A stretch of 24,782 nt of DNA from an archaeon (lineage in GTDB: Archaea > Iainarchaeota > Iainarchaeia > Iainarchaeales > 0-14-0-20-34-12), in assembly GCA_038046645.1 (NCBI GenBank), contig JBBSVU010000006.1:169196-193977 (forward strand), in the 5' to 3' direction. The notes under the pieces are model-generated. The model was not told the DNA's origin and ran no database searches. It saw nothing but the letters and a program-made list of their open reading frames with translations. Every line of letters starts with the position of its first letter. The first letter of the stretch is position 1. Of the stretch, positions 2,442 to 11,481 are shown piece after piece. A program made the translations under genes and the position numbers.

Positions 2442-3458
2442 ATGAACAGCATATTCAATGAATTGGAAAATGGCATACTTGCCTTGCCAAATATCTCACA
2501 TATTGAAAGAAATGATGAAGTATTATTCAATGATTTTTTCAGTCAAAATAAAGAAACCTTGGACTACGGAAATTCCTGGCCTTATATTGTCCAATCCACT
2601 TTTTTCAAAGGTTACAAGTACTTTGATGGGGATACGTTAATTGCATTTACCCTAAAAGAGCCAAATAAACTGCCATTTGTCATCACAAAAGCTTTGGGCA
2701 AAGCTGCTTTAGAGAAAACAATCCTGTTGGCAAATAAACTTCATAAGCTTTCAAATGAAAAAGTAATCCTAAAGAATCTTTCAGACAAGCAATTTGATTT
2801 TTTCAGGAAGAATGGATTTTCAGACTACCAAAAAGGTGATTGCTGGAATAACTTTTACAATTATGATGATGATTCTTTTCCTGAAACAGTGATTCAATTA
2901 AGGCCCTTGATGGATAAGAAAGGCGAAGACTATAAATCATTAAGGTATCATTTGAATCATTTCAGCAAAAAAGTGGGTTTTGAGATTAAGGAATATGATT
3001 TAAGCAATCATCTTTCTGATGCAAATAATGTACTGAATTATTGGGTTAATTCCATAAAGGAAAGATACCCTAAACATTTGCAAAATGATCCAATTTATTT
3101 GCATTCAGTTGATCTGCACAGGAAATACATTTCCGAGCTTCCAGCCGGGAAAAATGGCCAGCATTATTTTGCAAATATCCTTTATGCAAATAACCAGCCA
3201 GCAGGCTTTGCTCTGCTTTCAAAAATATCTGATAAATGTGTCGGAGTTTATTCCAACTTTTGCAAAAACAGCCATAAAGGATTATCTGAAACCCTATTAT
3301 ACTATTCACTAGCAAGAGCCTATGCTGCAGGTTTTGAATTTGCAAATTTTGGCGGGGCTGAATTCGAAAATCTTCTCGAATTCCGTTACAAATTCAATCC
3401 AATGACCCATCTACAAAGGCATCACGCAATACTTTATCCTAAAAAGGTGAGAGAATGA
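2442..3458 (+). CDS. DUF2156 / phosphatidylglycerol lysyltransferase C-terminal-like (GNAT-fold) protein
   Basis: LxxxxGxxYKSLRYHLNHF, HKGLSETL, FANFGGAEFENLLEFRYKFNP resemble the DUF2156 C-terminal pattern. Start ATG 2442. Confidence 0.65.
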   Translation: MNSIFNELENGILALPNISHIERNDEVLFNDFFSQNKETLDYGNSWPYIVQSTFFKGYKYFDGDTLIAFTLKEPNKLPFVITKALGKAALEKTILLANKLHKLSNEKVILKNLSDKQFDFFRKNGFSDYQKGDCWNNFYNYDDDSFPETVIQLRPLMDKKGEDYKSLRYHLNHFSKKVGFEIKEYDLSNHLSDANNVLNYWVNSIKERYPKHLQNDPIYLHSVDLHRKYISELPAGKNGQHYFANILYANNQPAGFALLSKISDKCVGVYSNFCKNSHKGLSETLLYYSLARAYAAGFEFANFGGAEFENLLEFRYKFNPMTHLQRHHAILYPKKVRE

Positions 3459-3643
3459 TTGCAGCATTTTTTGTTCTGGTTTTTTTCCTAACCGCTTTGA
3501 ATGCCAAGAAATCTATTACTGGATTTTTGCTAGCCATTGGCATTTCAGTAATTTTTGAAATTTATATTTTAGCGATGATTTCAATTTACCTTACATTTAT
3601 GTTTTTTGATAGGATAGAATCAAGGACAAGCATGGGCATGTAA
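3455..3643 (+). CDS. Small hydrophobic (2-TM) membrane protein
   Basis: 62 aa, mostly hydrophobic; ATGA overlap with the upstream stop. Confidence 0.45.
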   Translation: MIAAFFVLVFFLTALNAKKSITGFLLAIGISVIFEIYILAMISIYLTFMFFDRIESRTSMGM

Positions 3644-3674
3644 ATTAGAAATTCATGCATTTTTTGCAGCACAT

Positions 3675-4589
3675 TTATCCCAAATTAATCTTCATCAAAT
3701 CGCGAGCAGCCTGCACATTTTCAAATATTTCCTTTGCTTCTTTTTCCAGAACAGAAGCGTCAGAATATCTTGAAGAAATATGCGTGAACAATAATCTCTT
3801 TGCATTTGCCTTTTTTGCAAGCATTGCTGCATCCTTTGCAGTTGAATGTTTTGTTTCAAAAGCCCTTTTCCTTAAATCCTCAGTGAAAACAGCTTCATGA
3901 ATCAGCAAATCTGCATCTTGTATTAACTTTGCATTCTTCAAATCAAGCATTGTATCCACAATTATTGCAACCGTTCTTCCCTTTCTCCCTTTATCATAAT
4001 CCATTACCATTTCTGGCGTAATTTTTTTCCCATTCAACTCAATATTTTTCCCTTTCTGCAACTGTGAAAACATTGGGCCAATTGGAATCCCCAAAGAAAT
4101 TGCCTTCTCCCTTTGAAATTCCCCTTTCTTATCATTCTCTTTGAAGAAAAATCCAAAGCATTTGCCCCTGTGTTTTAATTCAAATGCCTTTACGATAAAA
4201 TTATCCCCTTTCAAAACAATTCCATTTTTCAGTTCAATGCAATTTACCTTAAAGCATAAATTTTCCAAAGGCATTGGTGAAATCTTTTCTACAATTTGTT
4301 TTATGCCCTTAGACCCATAAATGTTCAATTCCAAGTCCCTTTCATACATATTCATGGTTGCCAGCAATCCAGGCAATCCCAAAATATGGTCTGCATGGAA
4401 ATGGCTTAAGAATATGTGATTTATTGCCATGTAACTTAAATTGGATTTCATTATCTGCCTTTGCGTTCCCTCAGCACAATCAAAAAGAAGGTTTTCACCC
4501 CTATACTTCACAATAGTTGAAGAAAGATTCCTTTCAGCTGTCGGTGAGGAACATGATGTCCCCAATATTGTTATTTCCAATGGCTCCAT
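3675..4589 (-). CDS. rnz: Ribonuclease Z (tRNA 3' processing)
   Basis: ILGTSCSSPTAERNLSS, LLFDCAEGTQRQ, HFHADH metallo-beta-lactamase motif, GP-rich flexible arm, LIHEA, HST, THISSRY. Confidence 0.95.
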   Translation of the reverse strand: MEPLEITILGTSCSSPTAERNLSSTIVKYRGENLLFDCAEGTQRQIMKSNLSYMAINHIFLSHFHADHILGLPGLLATMNMYERDLELNIYGSKGIKQIVEKISPMPLENLCFKVNCIELKNGIVLKGDNFIVKAFELKHRGKCFGFFFKENDKKGEFQREKAISLGIPIGPMFSQLQKGKNIELNGKKITPEMVMDYDKGRKGRTVAIIVDTMLDLKNAKLIQDADLLIHEAVFTEDLRKRAFETKHSTAKDAAMLAKKANAKRLLFTHISSRYSDASVLEKEAKEIFENVQAARDLMKINLG

Positions 4590-4666
4590 AGCAAACAATA
4601 TGGGGACAATTATTTATAATACTTTTATCTCTTTCCTAATTAGTTAATTGGAAAAATTGAGGGCCT

Positions 4667-5005
4667 ATGCGTAGTTTATTCTTAATTTTATTTCTTTTAG
4701 CTATTTTGATTGCTTTTACTGGTTGTATTTCAAATGAAGAATCCAAAGAATTTTATTGTTCTTCCGGCTGCCACCCAAAATCAGCAACATGCACAAAACA
4801 AATCGAGCCAGTTTATTGCACAATGGAATTTCAATTAACTGATGGCTGCGCAAAATATTTCTCCTGTGAAAAGATAGGTAATGATTGTAAAGTAGCGGTT
4901 GATGAAAAATATGAAATTTGCATGGATTGTATAAACAATTGCGTATCAAACAGTAAAGAGCCTTTAATTATTTCAGAATGTGCCCAGAAATGCACATTAA
5001 GCTGA
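4667..5005 (+). CDS. Cys-rich secreted/lipoprotein-like protein
   Basis: Hydrophobic signal ending in lipobox-like FTGC, followed by a Cys-rich mature region. Confidence 0.6.
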   Translation: MRSLFLILFLLAILIAFTGCISNEESKEFYCSSGCHPKSATCTKQIEPVYCTMEFQLTDGCAKYFSCEKIGNDCKVAVDEKYEICMDCINNCVSNSKEPLIISECAQKCTLS

Positions 5006-5096
5006 TTGAGTTTTGTTTTTGTATTAATAGGTTTATATTTATTTTGATTTACTTGTATTTTATATAATTAATTATATATTGCTTTAGAGAATAATT

Positions 5097-6101
5097 ATGC
5101 CATCAAATATTTTTGAGGAATACAAAACAACAGCAGAAATTCCTGTGCCGGAAAAGCTTGTTGACCAGGTAATTGGGCAGGAGAATTCTGTCGAGCTTAT
5201 TAGAAAAGCTGCCTCGCAGAAAAGAAATGTGCTGCTTGTCGGTTTGCCTGGAACTGGAAAATCAATGTTAGCGCAGGCAATGGCTGAATTGATGCCTGCT
5301 GAGCAGCTTGAGGATGTAATTGTTTACGAAAATAATGTTGATCCGCAGAATCCTATTGTAAAAACAGCAAAAGCAGGTGAAGGAAAAAAAATTGTGGAGC
5401 AAGCACAATTGGAAGCGCAGAAGGAAGAAGGAAATCTGAGAATGATTTCAATGATTTTCCCTTTAGGCTGGTTTTTGCTTTCCTATATTATCTGGTCATT
5501 GAAAATGATTTCAGATATAGTGTACACAGGCACTTTATTATTAGGGGGATTTTTAATTGTTGGATTTGCATTAAGTTCTCAGTTAAGAACAAGGAATAAG
5601 GTTTCTGTGCCAAAGGTTCTGGTTGATAATTCAGGAAAAAAAATTGCCCCGTTTGCAGAAGGGACTGGTGCAAGGGCTGGGGCATTGCTTGGGGACGTGA
5701 GGCATGATCCGCTCCAGTCGTCAATTGACGAAGATTCATTGGTTGTTTGCTTAAATGGTATTTGGAAGGAAATTTCTTATGAAAAACTTTGGAATAGAAT
5801 AGTAAAGAAACATCCTGACTTAATTGAGAAACATGAGAAAGGTTACGAAGCAATTGTATTGCCCAAAAATGAAAATGTTTATGTTTGGGGCATGAAAGAG
5901 GGCAAAGTAGTTAAGTCAAGGATTTACTCCTTAAACAGAAGGCCTTATGAGGGCGAAGTTATTGAACTTTCGGTTGGAGAAAAGAAAATCACACTCACTC
6001 CTGAACATAAAGTTATTACAAAGAAGGGTAACAAAATTGCAGAAAAAATTTCAGAAAAAGATTTACTATTCAATCTTTCCTCACCAAAAAGCATCTGCTA
6101 G
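5097..6101 (+). CDS. lonB: LonB protease fragment 1 (Walker A, two TM helices) fused to split-intein N-half IntN1
   Basis: LVDQVIGQE, GLPGTGKS (Walker A), two hydrophobic helices, GALLGDVRHDPLQ, then intein-like sequence up to a stop at 6099-6101. Confidence 0.93.
   Translation: MPSNIFEEYKTTAEIPVPEKLVDQVIGQENSVELIRKAASQKRNVLLVGLPGTGKSMLAQAMAELMPAEQLEDVIVYENNVDPQNPIVKTAKAGEGKKIVEQAQLEAQKEEGNLRMISMIFPLGWFLLSYIIWSLKMISDIVYTGTLLLGGFLIVGFALSSQLRTRNKVSVPKVLVDNSGKKIAPFAEGTGARAGALLGDVRHDPLQSSIDEDSLVVCLNGIWKEISYEKLWNRIVKKHPDLIEKHEKGYEAIVLPKNENVYVWGMKEGKVVKSRIYSLNRRPYEGEVIELSVGEKKITLTPEHKVITKKGNKIAEKISEKDLLFNLSSPKSIC
5721..6098 (+). mobile_element. Split intein 1, N-half (IntN1, ~126 aa)
   Basis: Block A-like SIDEDSLVV directly after DPLQS; YEGEVIEL; block B ITLTPEHKV; no C-terminal intein motifs in this ORF. 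Confidence 0.85.
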
Positions 6102-6154
6102 ATTTAGTTAGCCGCAATTTCTTATTCCTCCAATTTCCTACTAATTATATTCTT

Positions 6155-6327
6155 TGAAATAATCGCCACCTCCTTATTGAATTTTTTCTTAGGACTCTGC
6201 TTTTCTCGACTTAAACCTTTCCCTGCCTTTGGCAGGTCGCTGGCGCTAAAGGTTTAATGTCTCCAAAAGCAGCAAAGCCGTCCAAGAAAAAATTCTTTGT
6301 TCGGAGGTGGCTCAAATGATTTTTTCA
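6155..6327 (+). promoter_or_regulatory. Long imperfect hairpin occluding the SD/start of the endonuclease gene
   Basis: Nested complementary segments: 6165-6173/6303-6311, 6179-6190/6284-6295, 6197-6204/6265-6272, 6211-6220/6248-6257, inner hairpin 6222-6236, outer 6155-6164/6318-6327 (1 mismatch). Confidence 0.75.
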
Positions 6328-7374
6328 GATAATCAATCACCGGAAATCTACTCTCAAAATAATTATAAGCCTGAAATACAGGCTTCTATTATGGAACCAA
6401 AAATCCTTGTTTCTGAGGAAGATATAATAAATACTTATTCTAAGGCAGAGCAATTTTCTTGCCAGAAATATTTTGAATATCAAAAATTGATGCAGGAAAA
6501 CCCTTCTTTCGGTTACAAAAAATGCGCTAAATTTCTTAGTATAAAGCAAGGGCAGGTGAGATGGTGGCACACAAAAGGGGCGAAAAGAGCAATTCCTTTG
6601 CCTTTGAAAGTAACTCAAAAATTAAAAGAAGTAGGCTTGCTTCCTTTCAATGAAAATCACAAGGATGCAGAAATAATCTTCAACATTCTTGGAACTCTTT
6701 TTGGTGATGGGGGTATTGATATTCGCTTCAATACTGTTGCTTTCATTTCTTCAGATAAAAGGGATGTTGATTTATGGCACTCTGATTTGCTCAGGATTTT
6801 TCCATTTGCTCAAGGAAAGACTCAAATTGTTGAGGGAGGAGAATACGGACATTCTTACAATATTCGCTGTTATGACCGTGCTGTTGTAAGATTTTTTGCT
6901 GCACTTGGTGCCCCTGTCGGAAGTAAAATTGTTACTGATTACTCTTTACCTAAATATTTTTCTGAGCTAAAAGGCAGATCATATAGAGCATTCTTTGATG
7001 GATTATTTTCTAGTGAAATCGCTATTCCAAGGTTTGTTAAAACTAAATATATCACCGACTATTTCAAGAATTTTAGTTTGAGCCTTTCAAAGGCAGAGTT
7101 TCTTGAGCAAAGCCATCTGGCTTTTATGAATGCAATTAAGCACTACTCAAAGAAAATTGGCATTAAGTGTACAGCCATAGTTAAGAAAGATAAATATCGT
7201 AATGAACCGCGGAAAGATGGCCATCATACTCACGGATATAGAATATTTTTCAGGACCAATATGGGCAATGCCTTATTTTTCAACAAAATCTTCCCTTTGT
7301 GTTATTCAGCAGCAAAGAAAGAAAAACTTCAAAAGGAAGTTGAGTTCTGCATTCAGCATAATCCACCCACCTAG
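6316..7374 (+). CDS. Free-standing intein-type LAGLIDADG homing endonuclease with N-terminal HTH
   Basis: ILGTLFGDGGI (motif 1), RFFAALGAPVGSK, FFDGLFSSE (motif 2); own SD GGAGGTG at 6303-6309, 6 nt before ATG 6316; no splicing motifs. Confidence 0.85.
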   Translation: MIFSDNQSPEIYSQNNYKPEIQASIMEPKILVSEEDIINTYSKAEQFSCQKYFEYQKLMQENPSFGYKKCAKFLSIKQGQVRWWHTKGAKRAIPLPLKVTQKLKEVGLLPFNENHKDAEIIFNILGTLFGDGGIDIRFNTVAFISSDKRDVDLWHSDLLRIFPFAQGKTQIVEGGEYGHSYNIRCYDRAVVRFFAALGAPVGSKIVTDYSLPKYFSELKGRSYRAFFDGLFSSEIAIPRFVKTKYITDYFKNFSLSLSKAEFLEQSHLAFMNAIKHYSKKIGIKCTAIVKKDKYRNEPRKDGHHTHGYRIFFRTNMGNALFFNKIFPLCYSAAKKEKLQKEVEFCIQHNPPT

Positions 7375-7534
7375 GCATTATTTTTGTTCTACAAAATTGC
7401 AAAAATCAATTTAATATCTTTAATAATAAGCGTAAGGAGGAAGGAATAGGTAGTGTAATTGAAATAGCTCTTGAGCACAGAAGAAAAAAAGCAAACCCAA
7501 TTACTTTAAATTTTGTTTATTTTATGTTGTCATT

Positions 7535-8353
7535 ATGCTAAGCAGAAGAAGAATTAACCTTTCACAGCTTTCAAGAGGAGAAAGGCATAGGATTAAATCA
7601 AGCAGGCCGAGGAGAAGGATTGCAAAAGAAGCTGCTAAACGAAGGGCACTTACTGATGCAAATATCAGGAGGACATTTGTAGGAATTTTCCCACATGATC
7701 GTGAATATATTCTTAAATCCGATTCACGAATTATTGGGGCGGGCAAAGGAAGATTAACCATCTCATTAGGTACATTGGTTGACCCTAAAACAGGCAAGAG
7801 CGGTTGCTTTGCTTTTAAGGTTTGCAGAATGCCAGACAATTTTGTTGAAGCCCATAAAAGGCACGTTATTTTTGGTGAGACTCACAGGTATAAATCCCTC
7901 TTTATGCCTGATTTCAAATCTGCAGAATCGTTTGATAACCATTATTTTTTAGAGTTAGCAGCACTTTATGATTTTAAGGTTGAACATGCACGGTTCAGAA
8001 GAATTGCCTCTTTAAGGATCCCAACTGTTTTTTCTAAGCTAGTGCCTATTGACCCTGCACAGGCTAATGGAATTCTTTTGGTTGAGGATTTAAGTGGGGG
8101 GGGGAGAAACAAGGTTGAAGAATTCCATAAATTCAATCATGCTAAAGTTTCAAATGCCCTAGAATTAATGACACAGTTTGAAAAATATTATCAAAAATTA
8201 TTGAAAGCGGGCATTAAAATAAGTAGCGAAGCAAGGCACGGGGAACATTCTTCTTTGAGGGAGGAAACTGAGAGAAGTTTCTTTGTTGTGATTGATCCAA
8301 AAACCCGCAAGGGAAAACTTGTCGCTGGTGACGCTGACCAGATTGAGTTTTGA
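7535..8353 (+). CDS. Hypothetical protein, Arg-rich N-terminus, possible atypical protein-kinase-like fold
   Basis: 272-aa ORF with ordered kinase-like motifs [17 protein letters not shown]...[29 protein letters not shown] at 7505-7510, about 25-30 nt upstream of ATG. The ORF is well supported; the fold is inferred. Confidence 0.55.
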
Positions 8354-8364
8354 AAAACAATACC

Positions 8365-8372
8365 TATTTAAC
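8365..8372 (+). promoter_or_regulatory. TATA-like box for LonB fragment 2 (possible leaderless transcript)
   Basis: TATTTAAC 25-32 nt upstream of ATG 8397; no SD present. Weak given the AT-rich background. Confidence 0.35.
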
Positions 8373-8396
8373 CCTTTTTTCTTTTATTTATTTTAT

Positions 8397-8519
8397 ATGC
8401 AGTTGAAAACAAAGAATGCAAGGATTTCTTCAAAAACTAAAAGAAAATTCAAAGGTCATGTTTACAACGTTACAACAGATACAGGCAACCTGTTTGTTGA
8501 AGATGTCCTTGTGTGCAAT
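8397..8519 (+). mobile_element. Split intein 1, C-half (IntC1, 41 aa)
   Basis: Basic N-terminus, block F-like [12 protein letters not shown], block G VLVCN followed by Ser+1 of the conserved Lon SGGLGTP. Confidence 0.85.
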
Positions 8520-10289
8520 TCAGGCGGCCTTGGAACCCCAGCGCATTTGCGAGTAGAAGTAGGATTAATCCACAAAGCAAACAAAGGTGTTTTGTTTATT
8601 GATGAACTTTCTGCATTAACCCCAAAAAGCCAGCAGGAACTTTTAACAGCAATGCAGGAAAAGAAATATTCAATTACAGGGCAAAGTGAAATGTCATCTG
8701 GTAGCATGGTAAGAACCGAGGCAGTGCCTTGTTTTACCCCCAAAACAAAGATTCTTACAGAAAATGGGGAAAAGCCCATTGGTTATTTTGTTGATTCTTT
8801 GATGACTAGTTTTTCAGATTCTGTTGAAATAAGCAATGGTGTAGAAACCCTAAACCTGCCAAAGGATAAATTTTTTGTTTTTGTTGCAAATGATAAATTA
8901 GGCCTATCTGAACTACAAAGAGTTTACCGGAAATCATTTAATGGAAAACTTATTCGTTTGACCTTCGATGATGGGACTGAGATATTAACTACGCCAGAAC
9001 ACCCAATTAAAACAGAAGATAGTTTTGTGAAAGCCAATGAAATTAAGGAAAATACCTTGGTTGAAACAGTGGATTCAATTGTCAATCTCAACAGTAGTAT
9101 AACAACCTATTCTTTGAATAACCAGAGAATGGCATTAACATATTTAAAATGGAAAAAATTTTTTTTACAATCAAATAAATCCAATTATGCTGTTGCAAAG
9201 CAGCTAGGGGTTGATCATAAAGTAGTGGCTAATTGGAAGAATAATGGTGTACCTATGGCTTTGCACTGTGTTAATTGGTTCGAAGCAAAAAATTTGCTGA
9301 ATCTTGCACTGGATGATCCTCGTTTATCTGTTATTGCTAAGTTGTGTGGTGCTTTATTTGGTGATGGGGGAATATCAAAAGAGATGAAGAAAATTTATTT
9401 TTGTACTGATTTCAACAGTCAGCATGATTTGTCTGATTTCAGCAAAGATTTAATTACTGTGTTTGGAGAATCTATCTCTAATAATATAAAAATAAGAAAA
9501 ACCCAAACAAGTAGTGGTGCAGGTTTAGAGCTATCTCTCAATAATGCCTTTGTTGCGAGGTTTTTCAACATACTAGGGGTTCCAAAAGGCGATAAGGTTA
9601 TGCAAGCTTTTGCTGTTCCAAATTGGGTTTATCTTAATAAGAATTTTGAGAAGGAATTCTTTTCTTCCTTAATCTTCTGTGAACTATATGGTAAAATCAG
9701 AAGTAGTCAAGATACGCCAACTTTTGTTATGGCTAAATTACAAAACATAGAGAAAGAGCATGTTTCTTTTTTGAATGAGATTAGAAGTTATTTGATTAAA
9801 AATGGCGTCAAAGTTTCTGAGATTATCAAAGGTAAAGAATATTTTAAATCCATATCTCAAAACAGAGAATTAGCAGCAACTTATTTATTCAAAATAAGGG
9901 GTTTGTATGGAAATATGTTGAAATTTAGCGAGGCAGTTAATGCCTATTATGCTACAACAAAGGGCAAGTTTATTGGTGAACACAATGCAAAAGGAAAAAT
10001 ATTTTTAGAAAATAAGAAGAATTTTGAAAATTTAATGAAACAATCCTTGCATTTGAGAAGTAAAGGCAAAACAATCAGACAATTAGAGGCCATTACTGGC
10101 ATTTCTAAAAATACAATCTTGAAAAATATCGAACCAACATATAAAAAATATTCAGAAGAAGATATGAAAAGAGTTTTCTTTTTACTTGAAAAAGGATTTA
10201 TTTCGAAACAAATCGCTAAAAAACTTATGATGCCCTACCAGACAGTTCTTTACTGGAAAAATAATTATTGGGGTGCTGCTAATGTTTAA
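8397..10289 (+). CDS. lonB: LonB fragment 2: IntC1 (41 aa) - 70-aa Lon segment with Walker B - IntN2 with LAGLIDADG endonuclease (519 aa)
   Basis: Probable start ATG 8397: MQLKTK...[21 protein letters not shown] | [15 protein letters not shown]...VLFIDEL...VRTEAVP | CFTPKTKIL...TTPEHP...GALFGDGGI...stop. Confidence 0.92.
8730..10286 (+). mobile_element. Split intein 2, N-half with LAGLIDADG endonuclease and HTH-like segments
   Basis: Block [10 protein letters not shown], block [29 protein letters not shown], two C-terminal HTH-like segments; ends without blocks F/G. Confidence 0.85.
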
Positions 10290-10401
10290 TAAATCATTTA
10301 AAAAGGTCATTACGGTAAGCGAAGAACCGTTTATTGGTAATGTTTATAATTTAAAAACAGCAGATGGGACATACATAGCTAATTCAGTAATCGTTCATAA
10401 T
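10282..10401 (+). mobile_element. Split intein 2, C-half (IntC2, 40 aa)
   Basis: Blocks F/G ending in canonical HN followed by Cys+1. Confidence 0.85.
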
Positions 10402-11481
10402 TGCGATTTTGTTCTTGTTGCAGCAGGAAATTACCAGGATTTGGAAAAGGTGCATCCTGCTTTGCGTTCGAGGATCCGCGGCTATGGGTATGAAATTTAT
10501 ATGAATTATGATGTTCCTGATACCGAAGAAAATATTCATAAATTAATTCAGTTTGTTGCACAGGAAGTGAAAAAGGATGGGAAGATTCCGCATTTTTCTA
10601 AGGAAGCTGTTGATGAATTAATTTTAGATGCGCGCAGAAGAGCAAACAGGAAGAACCGCTTAACCCTGCAGTTAAGGGATTTGGGCGGATTGTTGAGGGC
10701 AGCAGGGGATATTGCAATTAAAAAAAAGCATTCTGTTGTCCAAAAGGAAGATCTTTTTGAAGCAAGGATTTCAGCAAAAACCCTGGAGCAGCAAATGGTT
10801 GACAAGATGATTGAGACAAAGAAAGAATATAATGTTTATTTGAGTAAGGGAAGTGCAATTGGCAGGGTAAATGGTTTGGCAGTTACTGGGGATGGATCTG
10901 CAGGATTGATTTTGCCATTAGAAGCAGAAATCACGCCAGCAGCCTCACAGTCTGAAGGGAAAATAATTGCAACAGGAAAATTGGGGGAAATAGCAAAGGA
11001 AGCAGTGCAAAATGTTTCTGCGATAATTAAAAAATTAAGTGGGAAAGATATTACAAAGAATGATTTGCACATTCAGTTTTTGCAAACCTATGAAGGAGTG
11101 GAAGGAGACTCAGCATCAGTTTCTGTTGCCACTGCAATTATTTCCGCTTTGGAAAGCATTCCAGTAAAGCAGGATTTGGCAATGACCGGTTCATTGTCTG
11201 TGCGAGGAGAAGTTTTGCCTGTTGGTGGCATTACATCAAAGATTCAGGCAGCAATACAAGCAGGTTTTTCTGAAGTGATAATTCCAAAATCAAATATGCA
11301 GGATATTGTTTTGCCAAAGAAAGAATTAGATAAAATAAGAATAATCCCAGTATCCTCTCTTACCGAAGTTTTGGATATTGCCTTTGTAAAAGGTGCAAAC
11401 AAAAACAAGCTGATTAAATCATTGAACAAAATAATTTCAATCGCAGCAATTAATTTGCCAATTGCAAAATCAGCTGCTTAA
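10282..11481 (+). CDS. lonB: LonB fragment 3: IntC2 (40 aa) fused to AAA+ lid and Lon protease domain
   Basis: ATG 10282 overlaps the upstream stop and has GGGGTG 6 nt before it; [20 protein letters not shown] | [15 protein letters not shown] (Arg finger), EGDSAS (catalytic Ser), GGITSK (catalytic Lys). Confidence 0.93.

Follow-up and report, generated by a model that had tools for sequence, protein, structure and literature searches.

The window analysed here, 24,782 nucleotides of contig JBBSVU010000006.1 (positions 169,196 to 193,977 of the forward strand) in the archaeal assembly GCA_038046645.1 (order Iainarchaeales; genome G000), encodes a LonB protease in three separate open reading frames (ORFs), designated ORF A, ORF B and ORF C, in which the protease sequence is interrupted by the halves of two split inteins. 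We consider it likely that the sole AAA+ LonB of G000 is assembled from three polypeptides by double protein trans-splicing, as predicted from the gene sequences. Under this scheme, piece A would contribute the N-extein, with Walker A and the membrane anchor, fused to the N-terminal half of intein 1 (IntN1); piece B would consist of the C-terminal half of intein 1 (IntC1), a middle extein of 70 amino acids that carries Walker B, and the N-terminal half of intein 2 (IntN2) with a homing endonuclease; and piece C would bring the C-terminal half of intein 2 (IntC2) followed by the rest of the ATPase and the protease domain. IntN1 would pair with IntC1 and IntN2 with IntC2, and splicing would join HDPLQ to SGGLGTPAH and TEAVP to the C-extein, producing a normal LonB of 636 amino acids. 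Given that piece B would react at both ends, the two inteins must not cross-react. ORF A would be a transcription unit of its own, ORF B would be expressed from its own TATA-like promoter, and ORF C would be translationally coupled to ORF B because the stop and start codons overlap. We infer that the pieces associate in the cell, that both splicing reactions occur, that the inteins are orthogonal and that ORF B has its own promoter. Double trans-splicing had been proposed in an earlier note on this DNA; in silico, the proposal is supported by the conservation of the breaks, the catalytic residues, the selection acting on the pieces and the predicted docking of intein halves, with splicing itself a prediction.

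A LonB protease encoded in three pieces

The three ORFs tile the NCBIfam model for LonB, TIGR00764 (608 positions, curated cut-off of 516.6 bits): ORF A matches positions 3-197 (201 bits), ORF B positions 191-267 (119 bits) and ORF C positions 266-607 (512 bits). None of the pieces reaches the cut-off by itself; together, they span positions 3-607, and their summed score of about 833 bits compares with 811-918 bits in contiguous relatives. This tiling and the ORF coordinates (Table 1) bear out the three-gene layout given in the earlier note, as well as its two split inteins; two further genes located between ORF A and ORF B, namely a free-standing LAGLIDADG-type endonuclease ORF (HE1) and ORFX, had been missed, the order on the plus strand being ORF A, HE1, ORFX, ORF B, ORF C.

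Splicing in silico (207 + 70 + 359 amino acids) yields a LonB of 636 amino acids that is 61-71% identical to five intein-free LonBs of relatives and aligns with them without a gap at either junction; the middle extein is 75-80% identical to those of relatives. The product retains Walker A (GLPGTGKS), Walker B (VLFIDE), sensor-1 (VAAGN) and the protease motifs GDSAS and GGITSK, with sensor-1, the LID domain and the S16 protease domain all in the C-extein. The claims that both junctions restore LonB and that a product of 636-637 amino acids keeps the catalytic motifs were accordingly well founded. The roles assigned here to the motifs (Walker A and B, sensor-1, Ser-Lys dyad) are those established for LonB, and the hydrophobic stretches 5442-5501 and 5517-5579 of the N-extein, given their sequence and the usual architecture of LonB, are presumably two membrane helices. 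The further suggestion in the earlier note, that splicing might gate membrane attachment or ATP coupling, is speculative.

The G000 assembly comprises 1.17 Mb in 25 contigs (about 35% G+C) and is 89% complete; the window lies on contig 6. The organism is a groundwater archaeon, and close homologues bear public names ('Candidatus Diapherotrites', 'Micrarchaeota') that put it among the DPANN archaea. No second AAA+ LonB was found in this assembly, and the intact lonB elsewhere in the genome that the earlier note had allowed for is present on none of its contigs. The sole other Lon_C genes encode two membrane-anchored, S16-only proteins without an ATPase (G000:C4:21940-22434 and G000:C2:59851-60294), one of 264 amino acids and the other of at least 684 amino acids in an open frame of 799; similar proteins of about 800 amino acids are present in most of the relatives.

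Public records of the ORF B homologues P0002, P0004, P0010 and P0016 carry the name 'sigma 54-interacting transcriptional regulator', an error of annotation that stems from Walker B and its surroundings; as the middle piece is misnamed, automated surveys would score the carriers as lacking or truncating LonB.

The two split inteins

Both inteins are broken where an endonuclease would be inserted, between blocks B and F, and their N- and C-halves are encoded by different genes, in frame with the respective exteins. The earlier note had placed the breaks inside the inteins shortly ahead of block F and given C-halves of about 40 amino acids, in agreement with the 41 amino acids of IntC1 and the 40 of IntC2. 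IntN1 (127 amino acids) starts with Ser1, contains block A (SSIDEDSLVV) and block B (LTPEHKV), and ends about 30 residues past TPEH, whereas IntC1 holds blocks F and G and ends in VLVCN, followed by SGGLGTPAH. In an alignment of 15 IntN1 sequences (G000 and 14 relatives), TPEH is invariant, and position 1 is occupied by Ser in G000, G003, G010, G018 and five genomes of family f10, and by Cys in G001, G012, G025, G027, G040 and G127. All 13 aligned IntC1 pieces, that of G000 included, possess a Met located 39-43 residues before the invariant N/SGGLGTP. The penultimate IntC1 residue is His in most genomes, Ser in two, Ala in the contiguous intein of G033, and Cys only in G000 and G001. According to a review (PMC4031507), inteins have Cys or Ser at position 1 and Cys, Ser or Thr at position +1, with the penultimate His as an assisting residue; the reference list of that paper names work on splicing without the penultimate His and on the Lon intein of Pyrococcus abyssi.

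Structure prediction docks IntN1 onto IntC1 with an ipSAE (interaction prediction score from aligned errors) of 0.87, against 0.00 for the best of three controls; of 157 solved complexes, 116 attain the mark applied to this score, as do 2 of 215 mismatched pairs. At least 92% of the contacts are common to the three runs, and the partner pLDDT (predicted local distance difference test) is at least 76.

The N-half of intein 2 (IntN2-HE, 519 amino acids) starts with CFTPKT, and accordingly has Cys1, and contains block B (TTPEHP), two LAGLIDADG motifs and a C-terminal helix-turn-helix (HTH) region. It matches the models intein_Nterm, RtcB_rel_intein, HTH_7 and HTH_23, and its sequence also matches that of the Mja KlbA intein (2jmz). 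The earlier note had recognised this intein half but not its LAGLIDADG endonuclease/HTH region. IntC2, which has the penultimate His, ends in VIVHN and is followed by Cys+1; in all 10 genomes that carry it, it begins at the same aligned Met and ends in HN followed by C.

At the boundary between ORF B and ORF C, the stop codon TAA (10287-10289) overlaps the region that begins with the start codon ATG (10282) by 8 nucleotides (ATGTTTAA), an overlap not reported in the earlier note, which had the coordinates of the two ORFs right. The upstream stop overlaps the IntC2 ATG by 1, 4, 8 or 13 nucleotides in 10 of 10 genomes. The ORF C frame relative to that of ORF B is +1 (8-nucleotide overlap) in G000, G027, G174, G181 and G183, the last of these counted at the aligned ATG (an earlier in-frame ATG also exists), and +2 (overlap of 1, 4 or 13 nucleotides) in G010, G049, G003, G127 and G184; the junction sequences themselves vary among ATGTTTAA, ATGA and TAATG. 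Because both the frame offset and the junction sequence vary around one aligned ATG, the overlap fits coupled termination-reinitiation, rather than a sequencing error or a shared frameshift site.

Distribution of the breaks in the order

Relatives of G000 (G001 and so on) were surveyed in a set of 196 genomes of the order. Both split points proposed in the earlier note recur there, the break at site 1 (DPLQ/SGG) in 48 genomes and that at site 2 (VP/CDF) in 10. In the 41 genomes surveyed first, LonB is in pieces at site 1 in 10, including G000. A homologue of IntN1 is present in 51 genomes of the order (53 of 215 in the phylum set); in 48 of these 51, it resides in a frame of 50-827 amino acids, some of these frames being ended by contig edges, and in three (G033, G046 and G050) intein 1 is contiguous, in a frame of more than 1100 amino acids. 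Outside the order, the LonB of Pyrococcus yayanosii (P0104) contains a contiguous intein at the same site (DPFQ / N / SGGLGTPAH), consistent with the statement in the earlier note that Pyrococcus Lon carries such inteins; its blocks F and G resemble IntC1 on visual comparison, and its endonuclease motif aligns with that of HE1.

The content of the gap between the halves of intein 1 varies. A free-standing endonuclease ORF, always on the same strand, is located there in nine genomes, alone in G027, G040, G025, G127, G136, G140 and G158 and together with another gene in G000 and G012. A zinc phospholipase-C-like gene is found in the gap in G003 (and also in G012), an opposite-strand gene in G010, and almost nothing in G001. 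In G018, the halves are on different contigs, with flanks that lack the usual neighbours. Genes unrelated to one another seem to accumulate in the gap as cargo. The phospholipase-C-like genes (PF00882, at or just above the gathering score) are located at 4246-5022 of locus L041 (G003) and 3069-3794 of locus L044 (G012), in members of two families.

At site 2, a full-length homologue of IntN2-HE is present in 9 of the 196 genomes, G000 included, the other eight homologues being 41-49% identical to that of G000; in the tenth genome, G184, only the first 120 or so residues are matched, IntN2 being about 140 amino acids long, with the endonuclease lost. Eight genomes (G000, G003, G010, G027, G049, G127, G174 and G181) have a middle gene of the ORF B type, and two (G183 and G184) are split at site 2 only. 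None of the 10 site-2 genomes contains an open frame that runs from IntN2 into the C-extein. In a collection of 5.8 billion proteins, matches of 40-53% identity that extend over at least 92% of ORF B come from 21 other clusters, and all 21 proteins end at the endonuclease tail; 18 begin with IntC1 (some are N-terminally partial) and three begin with the LonB N-extein, that is, are split at site 2 only. No contiguous intein 2 was detected at E <= 1e-10 among proteins of 1104-3150 amino acids, which is weak evidence.

Further inteins interrupt LonB elsewhere in the order. The LonB of G001 (L042, 3215-6193) has no intein at site 2 and a contiguous one of about 520 amino acids at a third site, and in G003 piece A, a frame of 822 amino acids, is interrupted around Walker A by yet another contiguous intein. 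The LonB of this order therefore has at least four intein insertion points. Genome G134 contains both a contiguous LonB frame of 1066 amino acids and, on another contig, a frame of 686 amino acids with an IntN1 homologue (C43 and C44); this double form could reflect two strains binned together (contamination of about 3%) or two alleles.

Selection on the pieces and possible mobility of the inteins

Exteins, intein halves and endonucleases are all kept by purifying selection. The ratios of non-synonymous to synonymous substitution rates (dN/dS) between G000 and G001, which belong to the same genus (dS of 0.64-0.84), are 0.039 for the LonB N-extein, 0.061 for the C-extein and 0.089 for IntC1. 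For G183 and G184, the values are 0.145 for the splicing part of IntN2 and 0.070 for IntC2, and for G027 and G174, both with LonB in three pieces, 0.21 for IntN2, 0.205 for the endonuclease, 0.084 for IntC2 and 0.10 for the C-extein; in more distant pairs, the synonymous sites are saturated. Endonuclease values range from 0.09 to 0.2. Relaxed selection on the pieces, which the earlier note had named as evidence against its reading, is not seen, with dN/dS of 0.04-0.2 for the exteins and intein halves.

At IntN1, G000 shares 72-74% identity with the five f10 genomes, whose N-exteins are only 56-61% identical to that of G000, as against 51-58% with its genus mate G001, although the last 35 or so residues of IntN1 look similar by eye in G000 and G001; it looks like the first 90 or so codons of IntN1 have been replaced by a foreign allele. 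The combination of this foreign allele, selection on the endonucleases and a patchy distribution suggests that the split cassettes still move; the spread of both breaks over the order is patchy, as the counts given above indicate, and the acidic residues of the LAGLIDADG motifs are intact. Intein 1 would move by means of the freed endonuclease gene, and intein 2 by means of the endonuclease kept on IntN2, the latter being a split-only lineage that would home as a single DNA cassette.

Intein 1 would have originated by fracture of a contiguous Pyrococcus-type Lon intein into IntN, a free-standing endonuclease gene and IntC, after which cargo (ORFX) was taken up, the endonuclease was lost or the halves became dispersed. 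The forms found in the order can be arranged in a graded series: contiguous (G033); IntN, endonuclease and IntC in succession (G027 and G040); cargo inserted (G000, G003 and G012); endonuclease deleted (G001 for intein 1 and G184 for intein 2); and halves on different contigs (G018). Intein 2 is found only in split form. The more ambitious proposal, that two orthogonal split inteins build an essential LonB from three chains and that both are still mobile while split, is one that we put forward tentatively, at somewhat below even chances.

Alternative explanations

The breaks might be assembly or sequencing errors in a metagenome-assembled genome, and homopolymer runs do occur near the B/C junction. 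We assign this explanation a negligible probability: contigs of runs X3 and X4 (another study) and X5 (another sample) reproduce the region with 0 gaps, at most two substitutions and no indels listed, the three gaps that the earlier note had flagged for checking are all bridged by independent contigs without indels, and the break at site 2 is common to 10 genomes with differing junction sequences. Inteins elsewhere in the assembly are contiguous: some nine further genes of G000 with intein splicing-domain matches are contained in open frames of 622-1626 amino acids, most with both intein ends, which argues that the assembly is not generally frameshifted. The breaks are real and not an assembly artefact. 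These other intein genes are distributed over contigs C2, C6, C8, C10, C19, C20 and C23, the genome being rich in inteins.

If the genes are indeed separate, their products could still form Lon non-covalently, with the intein halves acting as docking domains only. A precedent is a fragmented phage ribonucleotide reductase, which is reported to be held together by domains derived from a mobile element (PMC3045599), and the missing penultimate His of intein 1 in G000 points the same way. Docking alone, however, would not require nucleophiles or a terminal Asn, and the retention of Ser/Cys1, TPEH, the terminal Asn and the Ser/Cys at +1 in all aligned split relatives counts against it. Furthermore, the breaks are within the ATPase core, at DPLQ/SGGLG and just before sensor-1, where a retained intein of roughly 170 to 560 residues would probably disturb the fold. 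We therefore rate assembly by docking alone as unlikely. Very unlikely, in our estimate, is a scheme in which ribosomes shift frame or read on at the B/C boundary and intein 2 splices in cis, so that only site 1 is truly split; the frames of ORFs B and C do touch, the stop of the former overlapping the start of the latter, but the offset of the C frame is +1 in five genomes and +2 in another five, with differing junction sequences. It is also conceivable that lonB of G000 is decaying and that its pieces no longer make a protease, given that DPANN genomes are reduced, that the middle gene is publicly annotated as an unrelated regulator and that the genome is 89% complete; with extein dN/dS of 0.04-0.06 at dS of 0.66-0.84, all catalytic motifs intact and a layout that persists across genomes with exteins differing by 25-40%, decay appears extremely unlikely.

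Several observations weigh against double trans-splicing itself. The splicing of LonB is a prediction from the gene sequences. Intein 1 of G000 combines Ser1 with a penultimate Cys in place of the usual His, and its splicing efficiency could be low given the missing His. The predicted docking of IntN1 and IntC1 may reflect memory of the predictor, because similar split-intein complexes have been solved, and it would show likeness rather than binding. IntN1 shows only 51-58% identity between G000 and G001, although the N-exteins are 95% identical; the present IntN1/IntC1 pair may be recombinant, and the compatibility of its halves is a prediction. The inteins are related to each other: in relatives, the C-half of intein 2 is matched by IntC1 of G000 and that of intein 1 by IntC2 (31-44% identity), whereas the two C-halves of G000 do not match each other at E <= 1e-3, and cross-reaction, with cyclised piece B or an A-C product as the outcome, might occur. 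An intact lonB could be encoded in the DNA missing from an assembly that is 89% complete. Finally, dN/dS averages both lineages, so that function lost very recently on the G000 branch only would escape notice.

Comparison with known systems

The closest counterpart of intein 1 is the contiguous Lon intein of Thermococcales (Pab Lon and Pho Lon), which, as judged on the LonB of P. yayanosii, shares the insertion point DP[FL]Q / N / SGGLGTPAH, blocks F and G that are alike by eye and an aligned LAGLIDADG motif. The Thermococcales intein is part of one polypeptide and splices in cis, in contrast to the three ORFs, with an extra gene in between, that are found here. The classical naturally split inteins are those of cyanobacterial DnaE (Ssp and Npu) and of Nanoarchaeum equitans PolB. 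The inteins of the LonB system resemble them in the position of the break, between blocks B and F, in the IntC length of about 40 amino acids, in the dispersal of the halves among unrelated genes in G018, and in the endonuclease-free IntN2 of about 140 amino acids in G184. DnaE and PolB have one split per protein and no endonuclease, whereas LonB of G000 has two splits, and its IntN2 keeps an endonuclease/HTH region of 400 amino acids. Papers on the DnaE split inteins are cited in the reference list of PMC4031507.

In the 'fractured genes' of marine metagenomes (Dassa et al. 2009, PMC2677866), a free-standing endonuclease gene separates the two halves of a split intein. The G000 locus is similar in that a conserved enzyme gene on one strand is affected, under purifying selection, with a stop/start overlap downstream. 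The fractured genes belong to phage-like loci, have GIY-YIG or Vsr-like endonucleases and a single break each, and their authors suggest that an endonuclease gene invaded from elsewhere; the term LAGLIDADG is absent from the paper. In contrast, the G000 locus is part of a cellular archaeal chromosome and affects a housekeeping gene with conserved neighbours and two breaks, and its endonuclease is the LAGLIDADG domain of the intein itself, set free. In engineered ligation with orthogonal split inteins (PMC7090010), a middle fragment is flanked by the IntC of one intein and the IntN of another; those are designed constructs, of which G000 LonB would be a natural case.

No description of a three-piece or split-intein LonB was found among the papers listed from the open-access literature in PubMed Central and bioRxiv; those listed on pairs of split inteins all concern engineering, by title and abstract. 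A word search for 'Lon' and 'split intein' returned nothing from an intein survey (PMC4760082) and, from a 2020 review (PMC7765530), nothing but the word 'long'.

The locus is notable for the double split, the endonuclease-bearing N-half and the presence of evolutionary intermediates within a single archaeal order. Few split inteins occur naturally, and protein engineering makes heavy use of them. If the proposed assembly is correct, a housekeeping archaeal enzyme needs two trans-splicing events, which implies a naturally orthogonal intein pair and a natural counterpart of engineered multi-fragment ligation. Intein 1 is a split intein with Ser1 and Ser+1 nucleophiles in which non-catalytic cysteines are still present; for labelling in an oxidising environment, split inteins free of cysteine are in demand (PMC13014065). 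In intein 2, the N-half of a split intein keeps a full homing endonuclease. The graded series within one archaeal order bears on how split inteins arise, and the locus corrects the public annotation of the middle piece.

Table 1. Features of the split lonB locus in window coordinates, and independent contigs that cover it
Feature	Position	Strand	Description
ORF A	5097-6101	+	334 aa
LonB N-extein	5097..5717	+	207 aa, ends HDPLQ; TIGR00764 3-197
Walker A GLPGTGKS	5241-5264	+	N-extein
IntN1, N-half of split intein 1	5718..6101	+	intein_Nterm TIGR01445 and PF14890 matches, alignment of relatives
HE1, free-standing LAGLIDADG-type ORF	6307-7374	+	355 aa
ORFX	7535-8353	+	272 aa
TATA-like box TATTTAA	8365..8371	+	about 30 nt upstream of ORF B start
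ORF B	8397-10289	+	630 aa
IntC1, C-half of split intein 1	8397..8519	+	41 aa; alignments, dN/dS, predicted docking
LonB middle extein	8520..8729	+	70 aa, SGGLGTPAH to TEAVP; TIGR00764 191-267
Walker B VLFIDEL	8589-8609	+	middle extein
IntN2-HE, N-half of split intein 2	8730..10289	+	519 aa and stop
IntN2-HE endonuclease motifs	9342-9371, 9657-9683	+	sequence
ORF C	10282-11481	+	399 aa
IntC2, C-half of split intein 2	10282..10401	+	40 aa, ends VIVHN before Cys+1
LonB C-extein	10402..11481	+	359 aa and stop; TIGR00764 266-607, 512 bits; PF05362, PF20436
GDSAS	11104-11118	+	S16 protease domain, C-extein
GGITSK	11224-11241	+	S16 protease domain, C-extein
X3 contigs	5448-9056, 9027-11457		Logan contigs
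X4 contigs	5908-9277, 9750-10543		Logan contigs
X5 contigs	5689-7155, 7221-8061, 8119-10542		Logan contigs

The segment between ORF A and ORF B

HE1 matches the endonuclease region of an intein-containing model (E 2e-17). It shares 34% identity with the endonuclease inside the contiguous Lon intein of G033, compared with 25% for the endonuclease of intein 2; a search of the PDB sequences returned nothing at E <= 0.01. In HE1, as in 9 of 9 free-standing homologues, each of the two LAGLIDADG motifs retains its acidic residue. HE1 evidently descends from the endonuclease domain that the ancestral Lon intein contained while it was contiguous, and is now a separate gene.

ORFX is cargo lodged between the intein halves, outside the splicing machinery. 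It has no Pfam or NCBIfam match and only four other clusters of homologues; an AlphaFold2 model built from five sequences (mean pLDDT of 44) is too poor for use, and the structural look-alikes in the ESM Atlas, RIO/ABC1 kinase-like proteins at a template modelling (TM) score of about 0.5, are a lead only. A remnant of the 3' end of ORFX (the last 35 or so codons) is kept in G001, where the gap of 290 nucleotides corresponds to G000 positions 6117-6236 joined to 8242-8379; the difference amounts to a clean deletion of about 2 kb that removed the endonuclease and most of ORFX.

Of 13 relatives, nine have a similar TATA-like box at -40 to -24 of ORF B (background 2%) and another three carry TATTTTAA; the count overstates the significance because the pattern was written after the sequences had been viewed. 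We infer that ORFs B and C probably form a transcription unit of their own, with a short or absent leader and a putative promoter.

The spacer 3' of IntN1 is 85% identical between G000 and G001. Its 205 nucleotides (6102-6306) are not repeated elsewhere in the G000 genome, and an Rfam scan of positions 5900-8500 returned a single sub-threshold match (E 0.58), taken as chance. Within this conserved spacer, a stretch of 42 nucleotides (6178-6219), which matches no Rfam family, contains the inverted repeat TTAAACCTTT ... AAAGGTTTAA and also matches short unrelated contigs from two runs, with loose ends on both sides.

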